DNA from: Cladosporium halotolerans
Taxonomy: Eukaryota
NCBI RefSeq assembly: GCF_011745625.1
Contig: NW_027191463.1
Location: forward strand, 310,001 to 374,000
Direction: 5' to 3'
Length of the DNA: 64,000 nucleotides
Positions 8,601 through 15,662 of the stretch are shown here, one piece after another; position 1 is the first letter of the stretch, and every line of letters starts with the position of its first letter. Under the pieces are notes generated by a model. The model ran no database searches and had not been told where the DNA came from. It was given only the letters and a program-made list of their open reading frames with translations. A program made the translations under genes and the position numbers.

Positions 8601-11600
8601 ATGGACTTCGCTAGCAGAAGCGCGAGCAAGAGCCCGCCTTCCTCACTCAAGGCCTCTGGCTTCATCGTGCCATCCTCGGCGCCTCTCGAGACCATCATGG
8701 ACGGCGAACCTCCTGGTCGCCCCGAAATGCAGAGTTTCGGCGACTCGTCCGGCACCGCCACGTCTGGCGAATCCATCGATTATGGCTCTGGCCAGGAAGG
8801 CGATTTCTACCCGGACAATGTCGCCGCCAGGCATTTCTCGCCGAATGCGCCCAGCGGGGTCGAAGGCATGTCGCCGTTGACGACCGCCTCCTCTTACGGC
8901 TGGACTCCAAACACTTCTGCCACCTCTTCCCGCATGAGCGGACGGCCGCCGGTGGGCACGCCGTACATCCAGCAGGAAGTCCCACCTGGCGCCATGCACA
9001 GTGCACAACAGAGACCTCCCAGACCGAGCGCTTCACGGCAGCCGTCGAACGCATACAATCCCGCGCGTCGCCCTGCGCAATACGTCAACACCGCCACCGC
9101 GTCCAGGCAGCGCACGAACTCGAGAACCAACCAACGGAACCCGAACGCGGAATACCGGGCGCAAGAGAAGGCATACGTGCAGAGGATACGGCAAGAGGAC
9201 GCACCGACCAACGATTTCTTCGGCGAGCCGCGGACCCCTAGTTTGGATTACAGCGATGAGACGAGCACCGATGACGAGTCGCCCACAACAAGCAATTACG
9301 TCGAGAACGATCCGTACGATCAGGATACTTTGCTGTACTACGGAAATGAGGAGCAAGAGCCGTCGTTGGAGGAGCTGAAGATACCTGCAAACCGAGAAAG
9401 GCTGGAATGGCACGCTATGTTGGCCAATGTCCTCACTGGTGACGTAGTGAAGCAGGAGAAGAAGCGTTTGATCGGTGGGCCTGACACTCAAGAGGACAAC
9501 GCGATGAAGACGGAGATATGGATCGGTGTAAGGGCACGCACTTGCGGACGCAGCGTGGCCACGCAGCGACGATTGATTGAGGAGGGCCGCTCCAAGGTGA
9601 AGCAGACGATTGAAGCGATCATTGCATTTGAAATTAAGGGTGAGGCAGAGGTCGGTAAATCGCCGCTCGAGCAGGTCCAGCAGGTCGTCAACCGCATCGA
9701 AAAGGTCGAGAGGCTCTACCCAACACGGCAGGCTTTCGAGGCTGCGCAACCCCGAGCTGCTTCTGATGCCTACCGGGCTACGTGTAATGCTGTGCTCTCC
9801 TGGCACAACACCACGAAGCTCATCAACACCGAGCTTGGTATCTTGCAGCAATGGGTTGGCAACGTAGAGCTTGACTTCACCAAGCCTAGGAGCGCCGCTC
9901 CTGGCGAGCAGAACGGACACCTTTTCGACGACAGCTCGTTCATCGACCGCATTCTGAAGGAGGACGGTCTGAAGTCTTTGCAAGGTGACAACAGCTTGTT
10001 GAATGGCGTCAATACCGTCATCAACAAGGCCAAGGTCACCCTTATTGAGAATGCCGAAGCATTCGCCAACCAACATCTGCCGCCCTACATCGAGGAACTC
10101 CTGACGCTCATCAACTTCCCTTCGAGGCTTATTCAGGAGATCATTCGTATGCGGCTGTCGTATGCGAAGAAGATGAAGGATCCCGCGCAGCAAGGCGTCA
10201 TGATGGCTGAGCAGACGATCTTGCAATTCAGAATCCTGCTCACGCTTGCAGTCAAGATCAAGGAGGCGTACCTCGTCGTCGCACAGCCTCAGCCTGGATG
10301 GGACTTGCCGCCTTGTATCGATGAAGCGTTTGATGGTGTCGTTATTGACGCTCTATTATTCTACTTCAAGATGCTCAACTGGAAACTCATGGCGAACAAG
10401 AACACATTCAAGGAGGCGGAAATTCTGGAACAAGAGTGGGATTTCTGCTATCAACTGGGCCGTCACTTGGAGGGCGGAGATGTCGAGGTCGCAGAGCAGT
10501 TTTCTTCCCTCACATCGAGATCGCTCAACCGTCTGACGACGCATTTCGAGAAGGAACTGGTGCGAAGGCCAGACGAGATGGGCGGCGCTGAGATGGACAA
10601 GCGGTACAAGTCCATCCTCGACTCGGTCCGTGTCCGACAAAGAAAGATCTTCCGTTTCTCCAGGATTCTCAGCCAGCGTTTCGAGAATGCCACCGAGTAC
10701 AACATCAACATGGCGCAAGAGCACTTCGACGACCTGATGGAGGCGCTCACTCTGACGGGCCACTTCTTGGTCGAGACCCAGCCACCCTCATCCGAGAGCA
10801 AGGACGAGGGCGAAGACTTCTCTTACTGGATCATCGCCTCGCCTACTCTTCAGAACCGACCGAAAGACATCGAAAGCATGCTCGGCACCTGCTACCACGC
10901 TGACGATGCGCCGGAAGATCCGAGCAACCCATACGTCCTCATTCTCGAGCCCGAGTACCCTCTCCAATGGGAGGGAGCCAGGATCCGCAGCGACGTGAGA
11001 CGGACTGACCTAGGTATGAAGACCGGCCGCTTGCGCCTCGTCGCAGACGGCAGTCTTCAACGACTTGCCAACGCCAACGCCACTTTCGCGGCCGTCACGG
11101 GCATCGAGCTCAACGTCCTCGTCGAGCAGCGCGCCAACTTGCTCCGTGTCGATACGGAGCTTACCAGGATCCGTAAGACGGCGTACAAACTGAGTAACAC
11201 GATCATGGACAGCGTGAAGATCGTTCGCAAGCAGACCGCGGGGCTCGAATGTCAGGAACTCATCCAGACGTGCTTCGCTTTCGCGACTGAGTTCGGTCAG
11301 CGTTCGGCCATCTACATGGACCAGCAGCGTCGCGCCATGCACCAGTTGAAATTGACGAAACTCGCCTTGGACTGGGTTAGCTTCATCGGCGACGATTGTG
11401 TTGCGAGCGACCGCAAGACGTTCAGGTGGGCTGTCGTTGCGTTGGAGTTTGCGATGATGATGACTAGAGGTCAGAACATCTTATCCATCAGCGACGACGA
11501 GTATGCTATCTTGAGGGCTAAGGTGGCCGGATGCATGAGCTTGTTGATCAGCCACTTTGATATCATGGGCGCGAGGAGCACGGTGGCCGCCCAGGCTGAG

Positions 11601-12806
11601 AAGCAGAAATTGGAGACTATGGTCGGCAAGATGAAGCTCGATTACCACAAGCTCAAGGACGACGAGGAGAGCAGTAAAGTTGTGCGCGCGCAGCGACTTG
11701 ACGAGCTCGAGAAAATTGATCAAGCTCGCAAGGACCGTGAGGCTGAGAGACAGCAGATGGGACGTGTGCTCGAGGATTCTAACGATGCCGATCGTGCCCT
11801 GACACACTTGTCTGCTTCTGCTGGCAACGTTCACCTCCGCTGGCAGCAGGGTCAATTCGTCGGCGGTGGTACCTTCGGCTCCGTCTACGCCGCCATCAAC
11901 CTCGACTCCGGTCAGCTGATGGCTGTGAAGGAAATCCGCCTCCAGGATCCCAAGCTCATCCCCACCATCGTCTCGCAGATCAGAGACGAAATGGGCGTGC
12001 TCCAAGTCCTCGACCACCCCAACATTGTGCAATACTACGGCATAGAACCCCACCGCGACAAGGTCTACATCTTCATGGAATACTGCTCCGGCGGCTCGCT
12101 CGCAGGCCTGCTCGAGCACGGGCGCATCGAAGATGAAACTGTCATCCAAGTCTACGCCCTGCAACTACTCGAGGGCCTCGGCTACCTGCACGAAGCCAAG
12201 GTCGTCCACCGCGACATCAAGCCCGAGAACGTCCTCCTCGACCACAACGGCGTCATCAAGTACGTCGACTTCGGCGCCGCCAAGGTCATCGCCAACCAGG
12301 GCAAGACGATCGTCATGGACGGGCCCTCCGGCCGCCCCAAGCAGCAATCTATGACCGGCACCCCCATGTACATGTCGCCCGAGGTCATCAAGGGCGGCAA
12401 GCACCACCACGCCCGCCTCGGCGCCGTCGACATCTGGTCTCTCGGCTGCGTCGTCATGGAGATGGCTACCGGCGCTCGCCCCTGGGCTTCTCTCGACAAC
12501 GAGTGGGCGATCATGTACAACATCGCGCAGGGCAACACGCCGCAGATGCCGACCCAGGACCAGCTGTCGGAGCTGGGTCTCGATTTCCTCAAGCGTTGCT
12601 TCGAGCGCGACCCTGCCCGCCGCGCTTCCGCTGCTGAGCTGCTCCAGCACGAGTGGATCCTCAATATCCGCAGCCAGATGGATCTCGAGCCGGAGACGCC
12701 GCAGACGCCGGCTAGTGAAGGCAGTGGTGGTGGCTACACGCCTGCTAGCGCGACAAGCTCGCATGGGAGGAGCAGCTTGTCGCACGAAACGTCGAGTGAG
12801 GATTAA
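8601..12806 (+). CDS. SSK2: MAP kinase kinase kinase of the HOG pathway (Ssk2/SskB/Os-4); start ATG 8601 or 8697
   Basis: Single long ORF. N-terminal RERLEWHAMLANVLTGDVV region is typical of Ssk2. C-terminal kinase has GGGTFG, MAVKE, HRDIKPEN, DFG and GTPMYMSPE. Confidence 0.95.
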   Translation: MDFASRSASKSPPSSLKASGFIVPSSAPLETIMDGEPPGRPEMQSFGDSSGTATSGESIDYGSGQEGDFYPDNVAARHFSPNAPSGVEGMSPLTTASSYGWTPNTSATSSRMSGRPPVGTPYIQQEVPPGAMHSAQQRPPRPSASRQPSNAYNPARRPAQYVNTATASRQRTNSRTNQRNPNAEYRAQEKAYVQRIRQEDAPTNDFFGEPRTPSLDYSDETSTDDESPTTSNYVENDPYDQDTLLYYGNEEQEPSLEELKIPANRERLEWHAMLANVLTGDVVKQEKKRLIGGPDTQEDNAMKTEIWIGVRARTCGRSVATQRRLIEEGRSKVKQTIEAIIAFEIKGEAEVGKSPLEQVQQVVNRIEKVERLYPTRQAFEAAQPRAASDAYRATCNAVLSWHNTTKLINTELGILQQWVGNVELDFTKPRSAAPGEQNGHLFDDSSFIDRILKEDGLKSLQGDNSLLNGVNTVINKAKVTLIENAEAFANQHLPPYIEELLTLINFPSRLIQEIIRMRLSYAKKMKDPAQQGVMMAEQTILQFRILLTLAVKIKEAYLVVAQPQPGWDLPPCIDEAFDGVVIDALLFYFKMLNWKLMANKNTFKEAEILEQEWDFCYQLGRHLEGGDVEVAEQFSSLTSRSLNRLTTHFEKELVRRPDEMGGAEMDKRYKSILDSVRVRQRKIFRFSRILSQRFENATEYNINMAQEHFDDLMEALTLTGHFLVETQPPSSESKDEGEDFSYWIIASPTLQNRPKDIESMLGTCYHADDAPEDPSNPYVLILEPEYPLQWEGARIRSDVRRTDLGMKTGRLRLVADGSLQRLANANATFAAVTGIELNVLVEQRANLLRVDTELTRIRKTAYKLSNTIMDSVKIVRKQTAGLECQELIQTCFAFATEFGQRSAIYMDQQRRAMHQLKLTKLALDWVSFIGDDCVASDRKTFRWAVVALEFAMMMTRGQNILSISDDEYAILRAKVAGCMSLLISHFDIMGARSTVAAQAEKQKLETMVGKMKLDYHKLKDDEESSKVVRAQRLDELEKIDQARKDREAERQQMGRVLEDSNDADRALTHLSASAGNVHLRWQQGQFVGGGTFGSVYAAINLDSGQLMAVKEIRLQDPKLIPTIVSQIRDEMGVLQVLDHPNIVQYYGIEPHRDKVYIFMEYCSGGSLAGLLEHGRIEDETVIQVYALQLLEGLGYLHEAKVVHRDIKPENVLLDHNGVIKYVDFGAAKVIANQGKTIVMDGPSGRPKQQSMTGTPMYMSPEVIKGGKHHHARLGAVDIWSLGCVVMEMATGARPWASLDNEWAIMYNIAQGNTPQMPTQDQLSELGLDFLKRCFERDPARRASAAELLQHEWILNIRSQMDLEPETPQTPASEGSGGGYTPASATSSHGRSSLSHETSSED

Positions 12807-13813
12807 GTGTTGGAAGTGAGCGGGGGCTATGTTGCGTTTTGGGAGCGAGCGATGGCGTTTCGTGGTGTTGGCATGGATATATACACATACCGCCTTGGTT
12901 TCTTTTGATTTGGCCATTTTTTGCGCATTGTTAGCGATCGGTTCTGTATGGGGTCATAAGATAGCACAGCGGACGATGTATGAAACATAGCCATTGATTT
13001 GTTACACCCGCCTTGAATCATTGACGACTCCAACTAGTTTCTGGCCTTTCGCTGGCTTTCAGCGTAGCGCATGCGCCTGAGATGGTAATCTGTTGAAAGA
13101 GACTAATGCATCGTCGCTGAAATACTTTCACCCGTTTCAACATCTTCACATTTAGCCGTGGCGCTTGTCAAACGCTACCCCGTGGAGCCTCCAGGGTCCC
13201 AACCCTCAATCCGGCCCGGCGCAGGGGCCAGCGCGTCTCGGAGCAACGTTATTCCCTTCCGGAGTAACTTCACTCTCTCCGATGGCATCTCTGTACTCTT
13301 TGGACTACATATCTCACCAATTGTACTTGGCCTAAAAAGGTACAGATGCGACAAGCTATATCGCATTTGCTGTTATCAGAATGGCGATCTTTAAGCGCCC
13401 CTCACTTGTATAATTGCGCAACCTCGGAATCATGGATCCCATCGGCACCGAGGCTCAGCTCACATCGGAGCTCGTCGCGCTTGGTTCTCCCATCCCCCGC
13501 CTCCGCGTACTCCGCGCTGGCGCTGTCCATGGCGATACAATCCACCGTAGTGCTTGCCAGCGCTTCGCTCGTCGCAATCTCAACGGATTGAGTAGCGGTC
13601 AAGGTAAGCTCGGCTGGCTCACGATAACTCGCCAGCGCAACCGGCTCCAGGCGGCAGCGAACTGGAAAGCTAGATAAGTCGCGTGCTCGCCCTCTCCTTT
13701 TCCTTCTCTCTTCTCTCTTTCATCTCGTCCGGATAACAGCTAAAGCTCACCACTTGTCTACTTTGAAACTCTACTCGATTCTTCATAGGGTTCGCTGAGA
13801 CCCTGCCGCCACA

Positions 13814-14017
13814 ACGTTCTCCAACCTTCTTAACTCGTAAGTGTCTCTTTCTCCTTTCACGACTTAGTCGAGTGTTGTCTCGATGTATAATTTATCGACT
13901 CGACTGTGGTCTCGGCGAGCAACAAGGCTGACTCAAATTGCCAGGCTTCACCACCCTTACGCCGGTCGTCGCTGCTCTTCAGCAGGCTCACCACCGGACT
14001 CTCTTGACACCAAGTAA
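13814..14017 (+). other. Putative ACG-initiated upstream ORF (31 codons) spanning a 5'-leader intron (13837-13944) of INO1
   Basis: GCCGCCACA-ACG context; intron GTAAGT..GCTGAC..CCAG. The spliced frame reads (M)[30 protein letters not shown] and stops 34 nt before the INO1 ATG. Confidence 0.65.
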
Positions 14018-14051
14018 CCCTTTTATCACAAAAAGGCTTACACGCTCAATC

Positions 14052-15662
14052 ATGGCCCCTCACGCTGAAGGTGCAACTGGCTTCGAAAGCAGCGTTGGCA
14101 CGACTGTGCACAACACCACTGACTCCAAGCCGGAGCTCTTCACCGTTCAATCCCCCAACGTCCAGTACACGGACTCCGACATCACCAGCAAGTACACTTA
14201 CCGTACCACCGAGGTCAATGTGACCGACGGCAAGTATGTCGCCTCTCCTAAGGAGACCCTCTACGACTTCAAGACGGAGCGCAAGGTCGGCAAGGTCGGC
14301 CTCATGCTTGTCGGTCTTGGTGGCAACAACGGTACTACTGTCACCGCTGGTATCCTTGCCAACCGTCAGGGCTTGAGCTGGGACACCCGCGAGGGTCCTC
14401 GCGCCGCCAACTACTATGGCTCTGTCGTCATGTCGTCCACTGTCAAGCTGGGCACTGATGCAAAGACCGGCCGCGAGGTCAACGTGCCTCTTCACGACAT
14501 GCTCCCTATGGTCCACCCGAACGACCTCGCCATCGGCGGCTGGGACATCAGCGGTATGGACCTCGCCTCCGCCATGGACCGTGCCAAGGTCCTCGAGCCG
14601 ACCCTGAAGGGCCTCGTCAAGAAGCAGATGGCTACCATCAAGCCCTTGCCCAGCATCTACTACCCAGACTTCATTGCTGCCAACCAGGAAGACCGTGCAG
14701 ACAACGTCGTCCCTGGCTCCAAGGCCAGCTTGGAGCACGTCGAGCACCTCCGCAAAGACATCCGGGACTTCAAGTCTGCCAACGGCCTCGACAAGGTCAT
14801 CGTTCTCTGGACTGCCAACACGGAGCGTTACGCGGACATCATTCCCGGCGTCAATGACACCGCTGAGAACCTGATGCACTCCATCGAGATCGGTCACGAG
14901 GAGGTCTCTCCCAGCACCGTCTTCGCCGTCGCCTGCATCAAGGAGAACGCGCCTTTCATCAACGGCTCTCCCCAGAACACCTTCGTCCCTGGCTGCATCG
15001 AGCTTGCCGAGCAGCACAAGGCCTTCATTGGCGGCGACGACTTCAAATCTGGTCAGACCAAGATGAAGTCCGCCCTCGTTGATTTCATGATCAACGCCGG
15101 CATCAAGCTGACCTCGATCGCCTCCTACAACCACCTCGGCAACAACGACGGCAAGAACCTGTCCTCGCAGAAGCAGTTCCGCAGCAAGGAGATCTCGAAG
15201 TCCAACGTCGTCGACGACATGGTCGCCGCCAACACAACCCTCTACAAGGAAGGCGAGCACCCAGACCACACCGTCGTCATCAAGTACATGCCGGCTGTGG
15301 GCGACAACAAGCGCGCGCTCGACGAGTACTACGCCGAGATCTTCCTCGGCGGCCACCAGACCATCTCGCTCTTCAACGTCTGCGAGGACTCCCTGCTCGC
15401 CGCCCCGCTGATCATCGACCTCGTCGTCGTCGCCGAGATGATGACCAGGATCTCCTGGCGCGCGCACGGCGCGGGTGAGTGGAAGGGTTTCCACTCCGTG
15501 CTGAGCGTGCTGAGCTACATGCTCAAGGCGCCGCTGACCCCGCCGGGCACGCCCGTTGTTAATGCGCTTGCGAAGCAGAGGAGTGCTCTGGTTAATGTGC
15601 TGAGGGCTTGTGTTGGGTTGGAGCCGGAGAACGACATGACGCTTGAGCACAAGCTGTTCTAG
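14052..15662 (+). CDS. INO1: Inositol-3-phosphate synthase
   Basis: [37 protein letters not shown] and [10 protein letters not shown] motifs; strong C-ending codon bias; starts MAPHA. Confidence 0.98.

Follow-up and report, generated by a model that had tools for sequence, protein, structure and literature searches.

The window analysed here is a stretch of 64,000 nucleotides of Cladosporium halotolerans, and its sequence served as the reference in comparisons with other loci. It harbours INO1, encoding the myo-inositol-1-phosphate synthase, whose protein matches the Pfam families PF07994 (at 7e-144) and PF01658 (at 1.3e-35). Ahead of INO1 lies a spliced leader with an intron-split upstream open reading frame (uORF), predicted to begin at ACG. 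The features of the locus are as follows.

13730..13836, forward strand: leader exon 1 in its minimal extent, ATG-free, placed by the 5' ends of spliced contigs from sequencing runs X1 and X4.
13787..13804, forward strand: small hairpin with arms AGGGT/ACCCT and an 8-nt loop, 9 nt 5' of the ACG, from the MFE fold.
13805..13813, forward strand: initiation context GCCGCCACA with A at -3 (13811), read from the window.
13814..13836, forward strand: uORF part 1, comprising the ACG (13814-13816), six codons and bases 1-2 of the Ser-8 codon, with the motif FSNLLNS.
13837..13944, forward strand: leader intron of 108 nt (GTAAGT..CTGAC..CAG), phase 2 in the Ser-8 codon, from spliced contigs.
13945..14017, forward strand: uORF part 2, comprising base 3 of Ser-8, 23 codons (with the motif HHPYAGRR) and the TAA at 14015-14017.
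14018..14051, forward strand: spacer of 34 nt from the uORF stop to the INO1 ATG at 14052, ATG-free and unconserved.
14052..15662, forward strand: INO1, a single exon of 536 aa, from ORF reading and Pfam.

The intron starts with GTAAGT from 13837, possesses a branch-like CTGAC at about 13928-13932 and ends with the AG at 13943-13944. After its removal the uORF consists of 31 sense codons followed by the TAA at 14015-14017, in a frame different from that of INO1. On rereading, all positions and lengths given for the uORF in the initial annotation (ACG at 13814, 31 sense codons, TAA at 14015-14017 and a gap of 34 nt to INO1) were exact. Going back from the ACG, the nearest in-frame stop lies five codons away, with no near-cognate codon among them. 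Read without splicing, the window sequence stops at once after the ACG (TCG TAA), and an ATG inside the intron, at 13883, would open a 44-codon frame that shares the exon-2 peptide. An N-terminal extension of INO1 was rejected, because the frame differs and a conserved stop intervenes.

Among the 20 near-cognate codons of the spliced leader of the window (214 nt), one opens a frame of at least 30 codons, namely the ACG at 13814. However, 986 of 2000 shuffled leaders contained a near-cognate uORF of at least 30 codons with a purine at -3, so that the 31-codon frame of one sequence alone is not beyond chance. The significance of the uORF is due to its conservation across loci.

Removal of intron 13837-13944 had been proposed in the initial annotation, which named an unspliced intron or a TSS downstream of 13814 as refuting the uORF; assembled contigs agree with splicing and with an RNA start upstream of 13814. 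The junction 13836|13945 was present in contigs of three of the four runs examined (X1, X2, X4 and X5), the RNA nature of which is only guessed, as none is on record as RNA. The contig of run X1 (518 nt) comprises 13730-13836 and 13945-14355, and that of run X4 (164 nt) comprises 13735-13836 and 13945-14006, each with no letter differing from the window. Run X2 yielded a contig of a relative (2235 nt) with the equivalent junction and one base substituted, which extends to 13343, and the contig of run X5, likewise from a relative, is unspliced. Since the window carries the intron and the X1 and X4 contigs are letter-identical to it, the joined form is most simply spliced RNA. These two contigs extend beyond the ACG by 79-84 nt on its 5' side; since a contig end does not mark the transcription start, the RNA reaches at least to 13730. 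The spliced contigs run from 13730 across the junction into INO1, which places the uORF wholly inside the 5' leader.

Loci of other species present the same arrangement. Three mRNA-sized contigs (L024, L041 and L042) carry the uORF contiguously, together with uninterrupted INO1 ORFs of 537, 536 and 543 aa, respectively, and in their genomic relatives L030 and L034 the INO1 ORFs are interrupted. An interruption of the INO1 CDS at aa 242 marks locus L025 as genomic; the leader intron has been lost there, and the uORF frame is retained exactly. The expected conservation of the intron position was found in 39 of 39 intron-bearing uORFs, a count partly set by the detection rule, of which the position formed a part. 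Intron retention was also considered as a conserved switch and rejected as a general one: the introns of L005, L006, L007, L026 and L031 are ATG-free, and 5' splice sites vary between loci.

A pattern search found the full intron-split uORF in 42 of 56 metagenome INO1 loci. The detection pattern constrains codons 1-7 and 10-11, and counts on these codons are therefore partly circular. In loci L009 and L021 the exon-2 part is present as far as the contig reaches (peptide HMM E-values of 1.2e-11 and 3.9e-08). The set contains 24 distinct peptides and 28 distinct nucleotide sequences. The peptides comprise 31-32 residues, their length differences being whole codons, and share a core in which S3, N4, S8 and H10 are invariant and P-F/Y-A-G-x-R is nearly invariant. 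The stop is TAA in 42 of 43 uORFs. A Pfam scan with three contiguous INO1 uORF peptides gave no family at E<=10.

Amino-acid conservation across orthologous leaders, a check set beforehand in the initial annotation, was found. In the uORF frame, pN was lower than pS in 375 of 378 pairs of the 28 distinct sequences (median pS 0.63, median pN 0.27), compared with only 84 and 58 of 378 pairs in frames +1 and +2. No stop interrupts the uORF frame in any of the 28 distinct sequences, but frames +1 and +2 contain stops in 14 and 19 of the 28, respectively. Considering only columns free of the detection pattern, pN remained lower than pS in 339 of 378 pairs, and in 71 of 78 with 13 clade representatives; sequence pairs are phylogenetically related and hence are not independent observations. 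Entropy at codon positions 1, 2 and 3 was 0.66, 0.59 and 1.14 bits, respectively. Switches between codon families preserve the residue, such as TCN to AGC at Ser-8 (L028) and CGN to AGA at an Arg (L025). Median nucleotide identity to the window was 0.69 for the uORF and 0.68-0.69 for the INO1 CDS, compared with 0.51 for the intron and 0.49 for the spacer. The two halves of the uORF are conserved only as a spliced unit, which is contiguous in L025. This substitution pattern shows purifying selection on the predicted uORF peptide.

The uORF is not present at every INO1 locus. In L022, L044, L046-L049 and L055, each of which has at least 680 nt upstream, the peptide HMM matched nothing in the upstream 1500 nt, or in as much of these as the contig contains. 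Loci L022 and L044 group with uORF-bearing loci on the INO1 tree, and L046-L049 possess short intronless leaders behind a TATA-like box. With seven loci lacking it, two of them amid bearers on the tree, the uORF is therefore, judging by this distribution, dispensable in some lineages.

The start codon and its context vary together. ACG is paired with A at -3 in 33 of 33 uORFs, and ATG, which substitutes for ACG at exactly one codon, is paired with T at -3 in 10 of 10 uORFs from two lineages on the INO1 tree. All 43 uORFs have T at +4. In L020 and L026, a stop codon immediately precedes the ATG start. The prediction of a conserved near-cognate start thus held, with ATG and T at -3 as the only alternative. 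The near-ideal context described for the window held in part: A at -3 is conserved (with T at +4), but GCCGCC is clade-specific. These pairings show selection on the predicted start codon and its context. Because the weak codon goes with the strong context and the strong codon with the weak context, they also argue for selection for a leaky, intermediate initiation rate at exactly that start codon.

Between position -80 and the main ATG, 26 spliced leaders contain one ATG, compared with 54.8 expected, and this ATG abuts the main ATG and is in frame with it. Leader introns contain 49 ATG compared with 32.8 expected, and hence are not depleted. The counts show that AUG is excluded from the predicted mature INO1 leader. 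Of 28 distinct leaders, 27 have a spacer of 31-73 nt, and L026 has one of 169 nt.

The peptide was also found among the proteins of named fungi. Searching 1.84 billion proteins with a profile of four contiguous peptides yielded 43 cluster representatives at E<=0.001. The peptide forms the C-terminal end in 35 of 38 retrieved proteins, and one further protein, P0021, reads through the intron. Eighteen of the 20 records looked up are NCBI 'hypothetical proteins' of named Pezizomycotina, and the uORF would explain this set of spurious gene models in public fungal annotations. Classes with the peptide, one species each looked up, are Pezizomycetes, Dothideomycetes, Leotiomycetes, Eurotiomycetes and Sordariomycetes, and the named bearers include Aspergillus, Penicillium, Fusarium, Trichoderma, Colletotrichum and a truffle relative, with records of A. 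niger, Fusarium oxysporum and Choiromyces among them. In 35 database peptides, the residue at the start position is T (28), I (5), V (1) or L (1). Directly before it, 32 of the 35 have K or T, which implies A at -3. P0001 and P0002 are tied to INO1 leaders by upstream in-frame residues near-identical to those of L029 and L037; among the database proteins only these two could be linked to INO1 leaders, the others being matched by the peptide alone.

Upstream of the ACG, the MFE fold of positions -45 to -1 in the window contains the hairpin at -8.1 kcal/mol (z = -0.20). Hairpins of at least 4 bp occur at the equivalent place in 24 of 28 distinct leaders, compared with 5 of 28 and 13 of 28 in two control windows. 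In an alignment fitted with a covariance model, 67 of 67 cells pair, and three pairs have changes on both sides. Energies are unimpressive, with a mean z of -1.03 (25 sequences), z below -1 in 13 of 25 compared with 6 of 25 in a control window, and per-sequence shuffle P from 0.00 to 0.57. RNAalifold on a MAFFT alignment (-40 to +3, 28 of 30 distinct upstream sequences) gave no pairs, the unequal-length loops being misaligned. The search of 13300-14100 against Rfam, on both strands, gave no match at E<=1. The hairpin at 13787..13804 is regarded, with moderate confidence, as a candidate accessory RNA structure.

On the strength of its conservation the predicted uORF is a real element, and it most likely represents a metabolite-responsive brake of the kind of plant GGP and fungal arg-2. 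That it is translated and acts as a regulatory uORF on INO1 is very probable from the comparative data. We give about even chances to the fuller explanation, namely that the spliced INO1 leader carries a translated conserved-peptide uORF which acts in cis, and at which effector-dependent stalling lowers INO1. Scanning 43S complexes would enter the AUG-free leader, and the majority would scan through the weak start, which is ACG with A at -3 or, in some lineages, AUG with U at -3, and initiate at the INO1 AUG, 31-73 nt past the uORF stop. A minority of ribosomes would start at the ACG and produce the peptide of 31-32 residues. When a certain small molecule is abundant, most likely myo-inositol or a close derivative, the nascent peptide would stall the ribosome from within the exit tunnel, at or near the TAA. 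Scanning complexes arriving after the stalled ribosome would be held up by it. Queuing may make initiation at the ACG more frequent, and nonsense-mediated decay may come to act on the mRNA; either route would lead to less INO1 enzyme.

The committed step of inositol synthesis is that of INO1. Supplying inositol to A. niger is reported to lower ino1 mRNA even in an ino2 disruptant (PMC6962311). The location of the uORF before a gene with this place in the pathway and the indirect observation in A. niger are the only hints of inositol as the effector, and for a translated regulatory uORF we lean slightly towards an inositol-related one. More tentative, and as a whole rather doubtful, is a ribosome-arrest sensor of myo-inositol or an inositol phosphate that dates to the root of Pezizomycotina, with the leaky start setting its sensitivity, the hairpin as an aid and queuing as amplification. 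In such a sensor the start codon and the -3 base would compensate mutually across lineages, and the hairpin about 10 nt upstream would help to hold the scanning complex at the start. The 31-32 codons correspond to about three ribosome footprints, and a queue behind a stall at the stop could load onto the ACG and so amplify repression.

The structural and evolutionary evidence fits equally well with a translated regulatory uORF that responds to a signal other than inositol, as none of it singles out inositol. The uORF could then be a constitutive peptide-dependent brake, a trigger of mRNA decay, or a receiver of another input; start-codon stringency (eIF1/eIF5 balance), polyamines, glucose-6-phosphate and a phospholipid-related metabolite are possibilities. 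Near-cognate starts are inherently sensitive to general initiation stringency, but a pure stringency sensor would not need 31 conserved residues. Moreover, peptide uORFs before committed enzymes usually report the product of the pathway, like arginine for arg-2 and ascorbate for GGP, as described in PMC5640933 and PMC11066809. We regard a signal other than inositol as possible, though not probable. Since purifying selection alone cannot tell cis from trans action, the 31-32 residues could also be a free-standing micropeptide acting in trans, on the enzyme or at the membrane, with the leader position serving co-expression. This seems improbable: keeping the start weak would be strange for a product that is needed, the peptide belongs to no Pfam family found by the scan, and the leader-wide exclusion of ATG preserves scanning to INO1. 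The fixed length of 31-32 residues also approximates that of the ribosomal exit tunnel.

Leaders can hold structured elements, and the small hairpin just upstream would suit a conserved block that works as RNA or DNA without being translated, for instance as a protein-binding site, as a structure or as a promoter-proximal element, with the open frame incidental. Nonetheless, variation is concentrated at codon position 3, the uORF frame alone is open throughout the distinct sequences, the Ser and Arg codon-family switches preserve the residue and length changes are whole codons. The replacement of ACG by ATG at one codon exactly, the nearly constant TAA stop, the lack of Rfam matches, and the conservation of the halves only as a spliced unit, contiguous in L025, likewise disagree with an untranslated element, which we consider highly improbable. 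A frame that is open by chance, in a leader rich in GC and with an ordinary 5'-UTR intron, would agree with the frequency of such frames among the shuffled leaders. However, 42 of 56 loci share the frame, as do named species whose five classes looked up span the subphylum, with coding-type substitution; the comparative data refute chance, and its probability is negligible.

In budding yeast, INO1 serves as the textbook example of lipid-precursor synthesis controlled at the level of transcription. How inositol synthesis is matched to supply is much less clear in filamentous ascomycetes, for which the uORF offers a concrete and testable mechanism. It points to an undescribed translational brake on inositol production, and would be a fungal addition to the near-cognate-initiated metabolite-type uORFs, of which very few are known. 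The trade-off between start codon and context in nature bears on the tuning of leaky initiation rates. If the arrest-sensor reading is true, inositol synthesis would gain its first described translational feedback loop. By analogy with editing of the GGP uORF (PMC11066809), the element may provide a handle for higher inositol output in industrial fungi.

In the literature searched, which left subscription journals and bioRxiv supplements outside its scope, no description of a uORF in an INO1 or MIPS leader was found. The Ino2/Ino4-Opi1 circuit of yeast INO1 is described as acting at the promoter via UAS_INO (PMC6962311). It concerns the same gene and presumably the same need, the matching of inositol synthesis to supply, but the element described here sits in the mRNA leader and would act on translation. 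The sucrose-control peptide uORF of plant bZIP11, at the stop of which a sugar-like metabolite causes stalling (10.1101/2023.08.27.554957), is similarly a conserved-peptide uORF; it differs in its AUG start, in preceding a transcription factor and in its unrelated peptide. The INO1 uORF resembles the uCC of AZIN1/ODC in having a near-cognate start in a favourable context and a conserved peptide. The uCC starts at AUU and carries a proline-rich C-terminal stall motif, and queuing behind the stall has been proposed to raise initiation at the weak start. In antizyme inhibitor and ODC homologues it is described as combining a near-cognate start in good context with a conserved peptide and polyamine control (PMC2811004). 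The pathway is different, and no proline-rich stall motif of the uCC type was found in the 24 + 35 aligned INO1 uORF peptides. The length of 31-32 codons would, speculatively, be suited to queuing.

The arginine attenuator peptide starts at AUG and has about 24 residues, and Pfam holds a CPA1 leader-peptide family. In N. crassa arg-2 and S. cerevisiae CPA1, arginine and the nascent peptide stall ribosomes and lower initiation at the main ORF, according to PMC5640933. Similar to this peptide, the INO1 uORF is a fungal peptide uORF before a biosynthetic enzyme. In contrast, it starts at ACG or ATG and encodes 31-32 residues, and at E<=10 its peptides match no Pfam family, the attenuator family included. 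The uORF of plant GGP (VTC2, GDP-L-galactose phosphorylase) encodes about 60 residues. Ribosome stalling at high ascorbate, the product, has been proposed for it, the change of ACG to AUG strongly lowers main-ORF output, and the transcripts are possible NMD targets (PMC11066809). Compared by description, the INO1 and GGP uORFs differ in kingdom, pathway and peptide; that of INO1 has fewer codons and is interrupted by a conserved intron, and from lineage to lineage its start codon changes together with the context.

The leader of the myo-inositol-1-phosphate synthase gene INO1 in the window harbours an ACG-started upstream open reading frame (uORF) split by an intron. The following features were read from the sequence:

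13787-13804, + strand, small hairpin with stem AGGGT/ACCCT, seen at the same position in the INO1 loci of metagenome contigs L001-L052
13814-13816, + strand, uORF start ACG, preceded by GCCGCCACA, with A at -3
from 13837, + strand, leader intron donor GTAAGT
near 13928, + strand, CTGAC branch-like motif
13943-13944, + strand, intron acceptor AG
from 13945, + strand, exon 2
14015-14017, + strand, uORF stop TAA, ending the 31 sense codons of the spliced frame
14052..15662, + strand, INO1 ORF of 536 aa, its ATG 34 nt past the uORF stop

The uORF, intron and stop coordinates of the initial annotation, which had proposed a hidden inositol-sensing uORF here, were exact on re-reading. Pfam identified the 536-aa ORF as myo-inositol-1-phosphate synthase (PF07994, 7e-144; PF01658, 1.3e-35). 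With the RNA 5' end set at 13730, the spliced leader of 214 nt contains no ATG and 20 near-cognate codons, of which just one, the ACG at 13814, opens a frame of at least 30 codons. A near-cognate uORF of that length also arose in 986 of 2000 shuffled leaders, so the frame in this single sequence is weak evidence by itself. Going upstream from the ACG in frame, the window has no near-cognate codon before the first stop. Directly upstream of INO1 and on the same strand, 8601-12806 encodes a 1401-aa ORF with C-terminal protein-kinase-like sequence.

Contigs from four sequencing runs (X1, X2, X4 and X5) were aligned to the window, and the joined, intron-less form was found in three of these four, which were guessed to be RNA, none being recorded as such. 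The X1 contig (518 nt) joins 13730-13836 to 13945-14355, and the X4 contig (164 nt) joins 13735-13836 to 13945-14006, both with no mismatches. The 2235-nt contig of X2, a relative diverged by a few percent, has the same 13836|13945 joint with one base substituted and reaches 5' to 13343; that of X5, another relative, is unspliced over 13421-14104. Since the window DNA has the intron while X1 and X4 are otherwise identical to it, the simple reading of their joined form is spliced RNA. The X1 and X4 contig ends, which are not transcription starts, extend the leader RNA at least 79-84 nt 5' of the ACG. Thus, the anatomy proposed by the initial annotation is right, as intron 13837-13944 is spliced and the ACG is within the RNA; the uORF lies in the mature INO1 leader.

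The X2 contig reaches 390 nt farther upstream than those of X1 and X4, over 13343-13730, where several ATGs and two 81-codon ORFs (13346..13591 and 13432..13677) occur. This extension could stem from a leader isoform that is long and hard to translate, from fusion in assembly with a neighbouring or antisense transcript, or from read-through. Were the intron retained in the window, the ACG frame would end immediately (TCG TAA, 13835-13840), and an intronic ATG at 13883 would start a 44-codon frame sharing the exon-2 peptide. The latter frame is not conserved, because several orthologous introns are without ATG.

Scanning of metagenome contigs with INO1 residues 1-183 yielded 56 loci of 46-92% identity. 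Their leaders were searched for the exon-1 codons followed by GT at the same position, and then for any AG acceptor 32 to about 480 nt on with His-His or His-Asn after the junction. The full uORF was found in 42 of the 56 loci. Two further loci contain the exon-2 part up to the contig end (L009 and L021, HMM E 1.2e-11 and 3.9e-08), and L002 the uORF tail alone (HMM E 0.05). Upstream sequence amounted to 43, 58 and 0 nt in L023, L032 and L056, and to 125 nt in the distant L053. Neither the pattern nor the peptide HMM detected the uORF in L022, L044, L046-L049 and L055, despite at least 680 nt upstream. As the INO1 tree groups L022 and L044 with loci that carry the uORF (98/97 support), the element seems to have been lost in both. 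L046-L049 possess short intron-free leaders downstream of a TATA-like box.

Including the window, the comparison set comprised 43 uORFs (28 different nucleotide sequences encoding 24 different peptides), and the peptide-level conservation predicted by the initial annotation was found across these leaders. Entropy at codon positions 1, 2 and 3 was 0.66, 0.59 and 1.14 bits, the third position being the most variable. pN was lower than pS in 375 of 378 uORF pairs (median pS 0.63, pN 0.27), counts that are not independent trials because the sequences are related by descent. In frames +1 and +2 of the same alignment this held for only 84 and 58 of the 378 pairs, with stops in 14 and 19 of the 28 rows. 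Because the detection pattern fixes codons 1-7 and 10-11, the count was redone on the columns free of it, giving 339/378 pairs, and 71/78 with one representative for each of 13 clades. The Ser-8 codon is mostly TCN and AGC in L028, and one Arg codon is mostly CGN and AGA in L025. Residues S3, N4, S8 and H10 are invariant in all 24 peptides, and L6, G15, R18, S20, G23 and D28 nearly so. Among the 22 loci outside the clade of the window, median nucleotide identity to the window was 0.69 for the uORF and 0.68-0.69 for the INO1 coding sequence, versus 0.51 for the intron and 0.49 for the spacer.

The split follows the second base of the Ser-8 codon in 39/39 intron-bearing uORFs, a position that is part of the detection rule, and intron lengths range from 52 to 319 nt. 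L024, L041 and L042 are mRNA-sized contigs with an uninterrupted INO1 ORF, which is interrupted in the genomic relatives L030 and L034; they are recognisable as cDNA-like, displaying the spliced uORF in other species, and start 107, 114 and 79 nt before the ACG. In L025 the uORF is contiguous (190-282), though the INO1 coding sequence is interrupted at aa 242, which marks it as a genomic locus; there, the leader intron has evidently been lost precisely, with the frame preserved. Across 26 distinct spliced leaders, the stretch from -80 to the main ATG has a single ATG besides the uORF start, versus 54.8 expected from composition, and this one adjoins the main ATG in frame; the leader introns contain 49 versus 32.8 expected. 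In all but one of the 28 distinct leaders, the uORF stop and the INO1 ATG are 31-73 nt apart. On an mRNA of this layout, ribosomes would reach INO1 by scanning, either through or past a leaky start lying upstream.

All 33 ACG-started uORFs have A at -3 (11 distinct hexamer contexts), and in all ten with T at -3 (3 distinct contexts) ATG replaces ACG at the same codon. The ATG-started uORFs form two lineages on the INO1 tree, the clade of L011-L018 plus L020, and L026; in L020 and L026 a stop codon immediately precedes the ATG. Selection for an intermediate, leaky rate of initiation at precisely this codon would yield such pairings, in which a weak codon has a strong context or vice versa. All 43 uORFs have T at +4, the stop is TAA in 42/43, and the length is 31 aa (n=32) or 32 aa (n=11). 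These comparisons show selection on the uORF peptide, on its weak start and its stop, and on the lack of other AUGs.

The distance from the 3' end of the small hairpin to the uORF start is 3-17 nt, most often 10-11 nt. The hairpin was present in 24/28 distinct leaders versus 5/28 and 13/28 in two control windows. Its stems vary by clade (GGGC/GCCC, GGGCT/AGCCC, AGGGT/ACCCT, GATCACAC/GTGTGATC, AGAC/GTCT) with complementarity mostly kept. In a model-fitted alignment of 23 matches, which leans toward structure and omits GATCAC-type stems, 67/67 cells pair versus 6-69% with partners slid, and three pairs show changes on both sides. Hairpin energies are modest relative to shuffles, and the stem is broken in L012 and L015, two members of the ATG-start clade. 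The case for the hairpin as a candidate element is evenly balanced, with moderate statistics; one possible role is as an accessory to near-cognate initiation.

Among 1.84 billion cluster representatives, a profile built from four contiguous peptides matched 43 proteins at E<=0.001, 16 of them at E<=1e-10. We examined 38, the other five being multi-stretch matches, and 35 of the 38 are short predicted proteins ending exactly in the uORF peptide. In P0021 both uORF halves are present and the reading runs through the intron, while P0003 and P0043 were rejected as unrelated repeats. Across P0001-P0042, the public fungal models terminating exactly with the peptide are 44-151 aa long. NCBI 'hypothetical proteins' of named fungi accounted for 18 of 20 looked up, from Plenodomus, Xylaria, Hyaloscypha, Thermocarpiscus, Thermothelomyces, Trichoderma, Colletotrichum, Thermoascus, Thermomyces, Aspergillus niger, Paecilomyces, two Penicillium, two Pseudogymnoascus, Choiromyces, Claviceps and Fusarium oxysporum. 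Five species looked up, one per class, represent Pezizomycetes (Choiromyces venosus), Dothideomycetes (Plenodomus biglobosus), Leotiomycetes (Hyaloscypha variabilis), Eurotiomycetes (Aspergillus niger) and Sordariomycetes (Xylaria scruposa). Of the database proteins, P0001 and P0002 alone could be tied to INO1 leaders, by near-identity to the upstream in-frame residues of L029 and L037. The short models look like gene-caller artefacts, in which the leader frame was extended to an upstream ATG.

The start-position residue of the 35 database peptides is Thr (28), Ile (5), Val (1) or Leu (1); those with Ile or Val (P0035, P0036, P0038, P0039, P0041 and P0042) are from Eurotiales. Ile is encoded solely by AUH codons, which are likewise near-cognate. 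Read from residues, not codons, AUH or GUN near-cognates probably serve as the uORF start in Aspergillus, Penicillium and Thermomyces. The preceding residue is K or T in 32/35, and therefore A at -3 is implied. The uORF family is old and widespread, and annotations either lack it or mislabel it as hypothetical proteins.

In the mechanism we propose, most scanning complexes would leak past the ACG and reach INO1, whereas initiating ribosomes would make the 31-32-residue peptide and, in the presence of an effector, arrest close to the stop. The arrested ribosome would block scanning complexes, possibly queuing them onto the ACG, and may trigger mRNA decay. Ribosome queuing is also proposed for the polyamine-responsive uCC class of uORFs. 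Inositol or a derivative is the most plausible effector, since INO1 is the committed step of inositol synthesis. An indirect hint in this direction comes from A. niger, in which supplementing inositol reduced ino1 mRNA even in the absence of the ino2 activator (PMC6962311). INO1 mRNA is described as increased in a upf1 mutant of Cryptococcus (PMC12934609), a basidiomycete that is not among the species in which the uORF was seen.

The peptide matched no Pfam family and the leader no Rfam family. Full-text searches of the open literature, PMC5487733 included, brought up no uORF in an INO1 or MIPS leader; subscription-only papers were outside this scope and may hold a prior description. Of known systems, the plant GGP uORF is the most similar: PMC11066809 describes initiation at ACG, peptide conservation and a proposed stalling that depends on ascorbate. 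It is followed by the fungal arginine attenuator peptide (PMC5640933) and the uCC class (PMC2811004). By its anatomy and conservation, the INO1 uORF is a new family in the known class of conserved-peptide, near-cognate-initiated regulatory uORFs.
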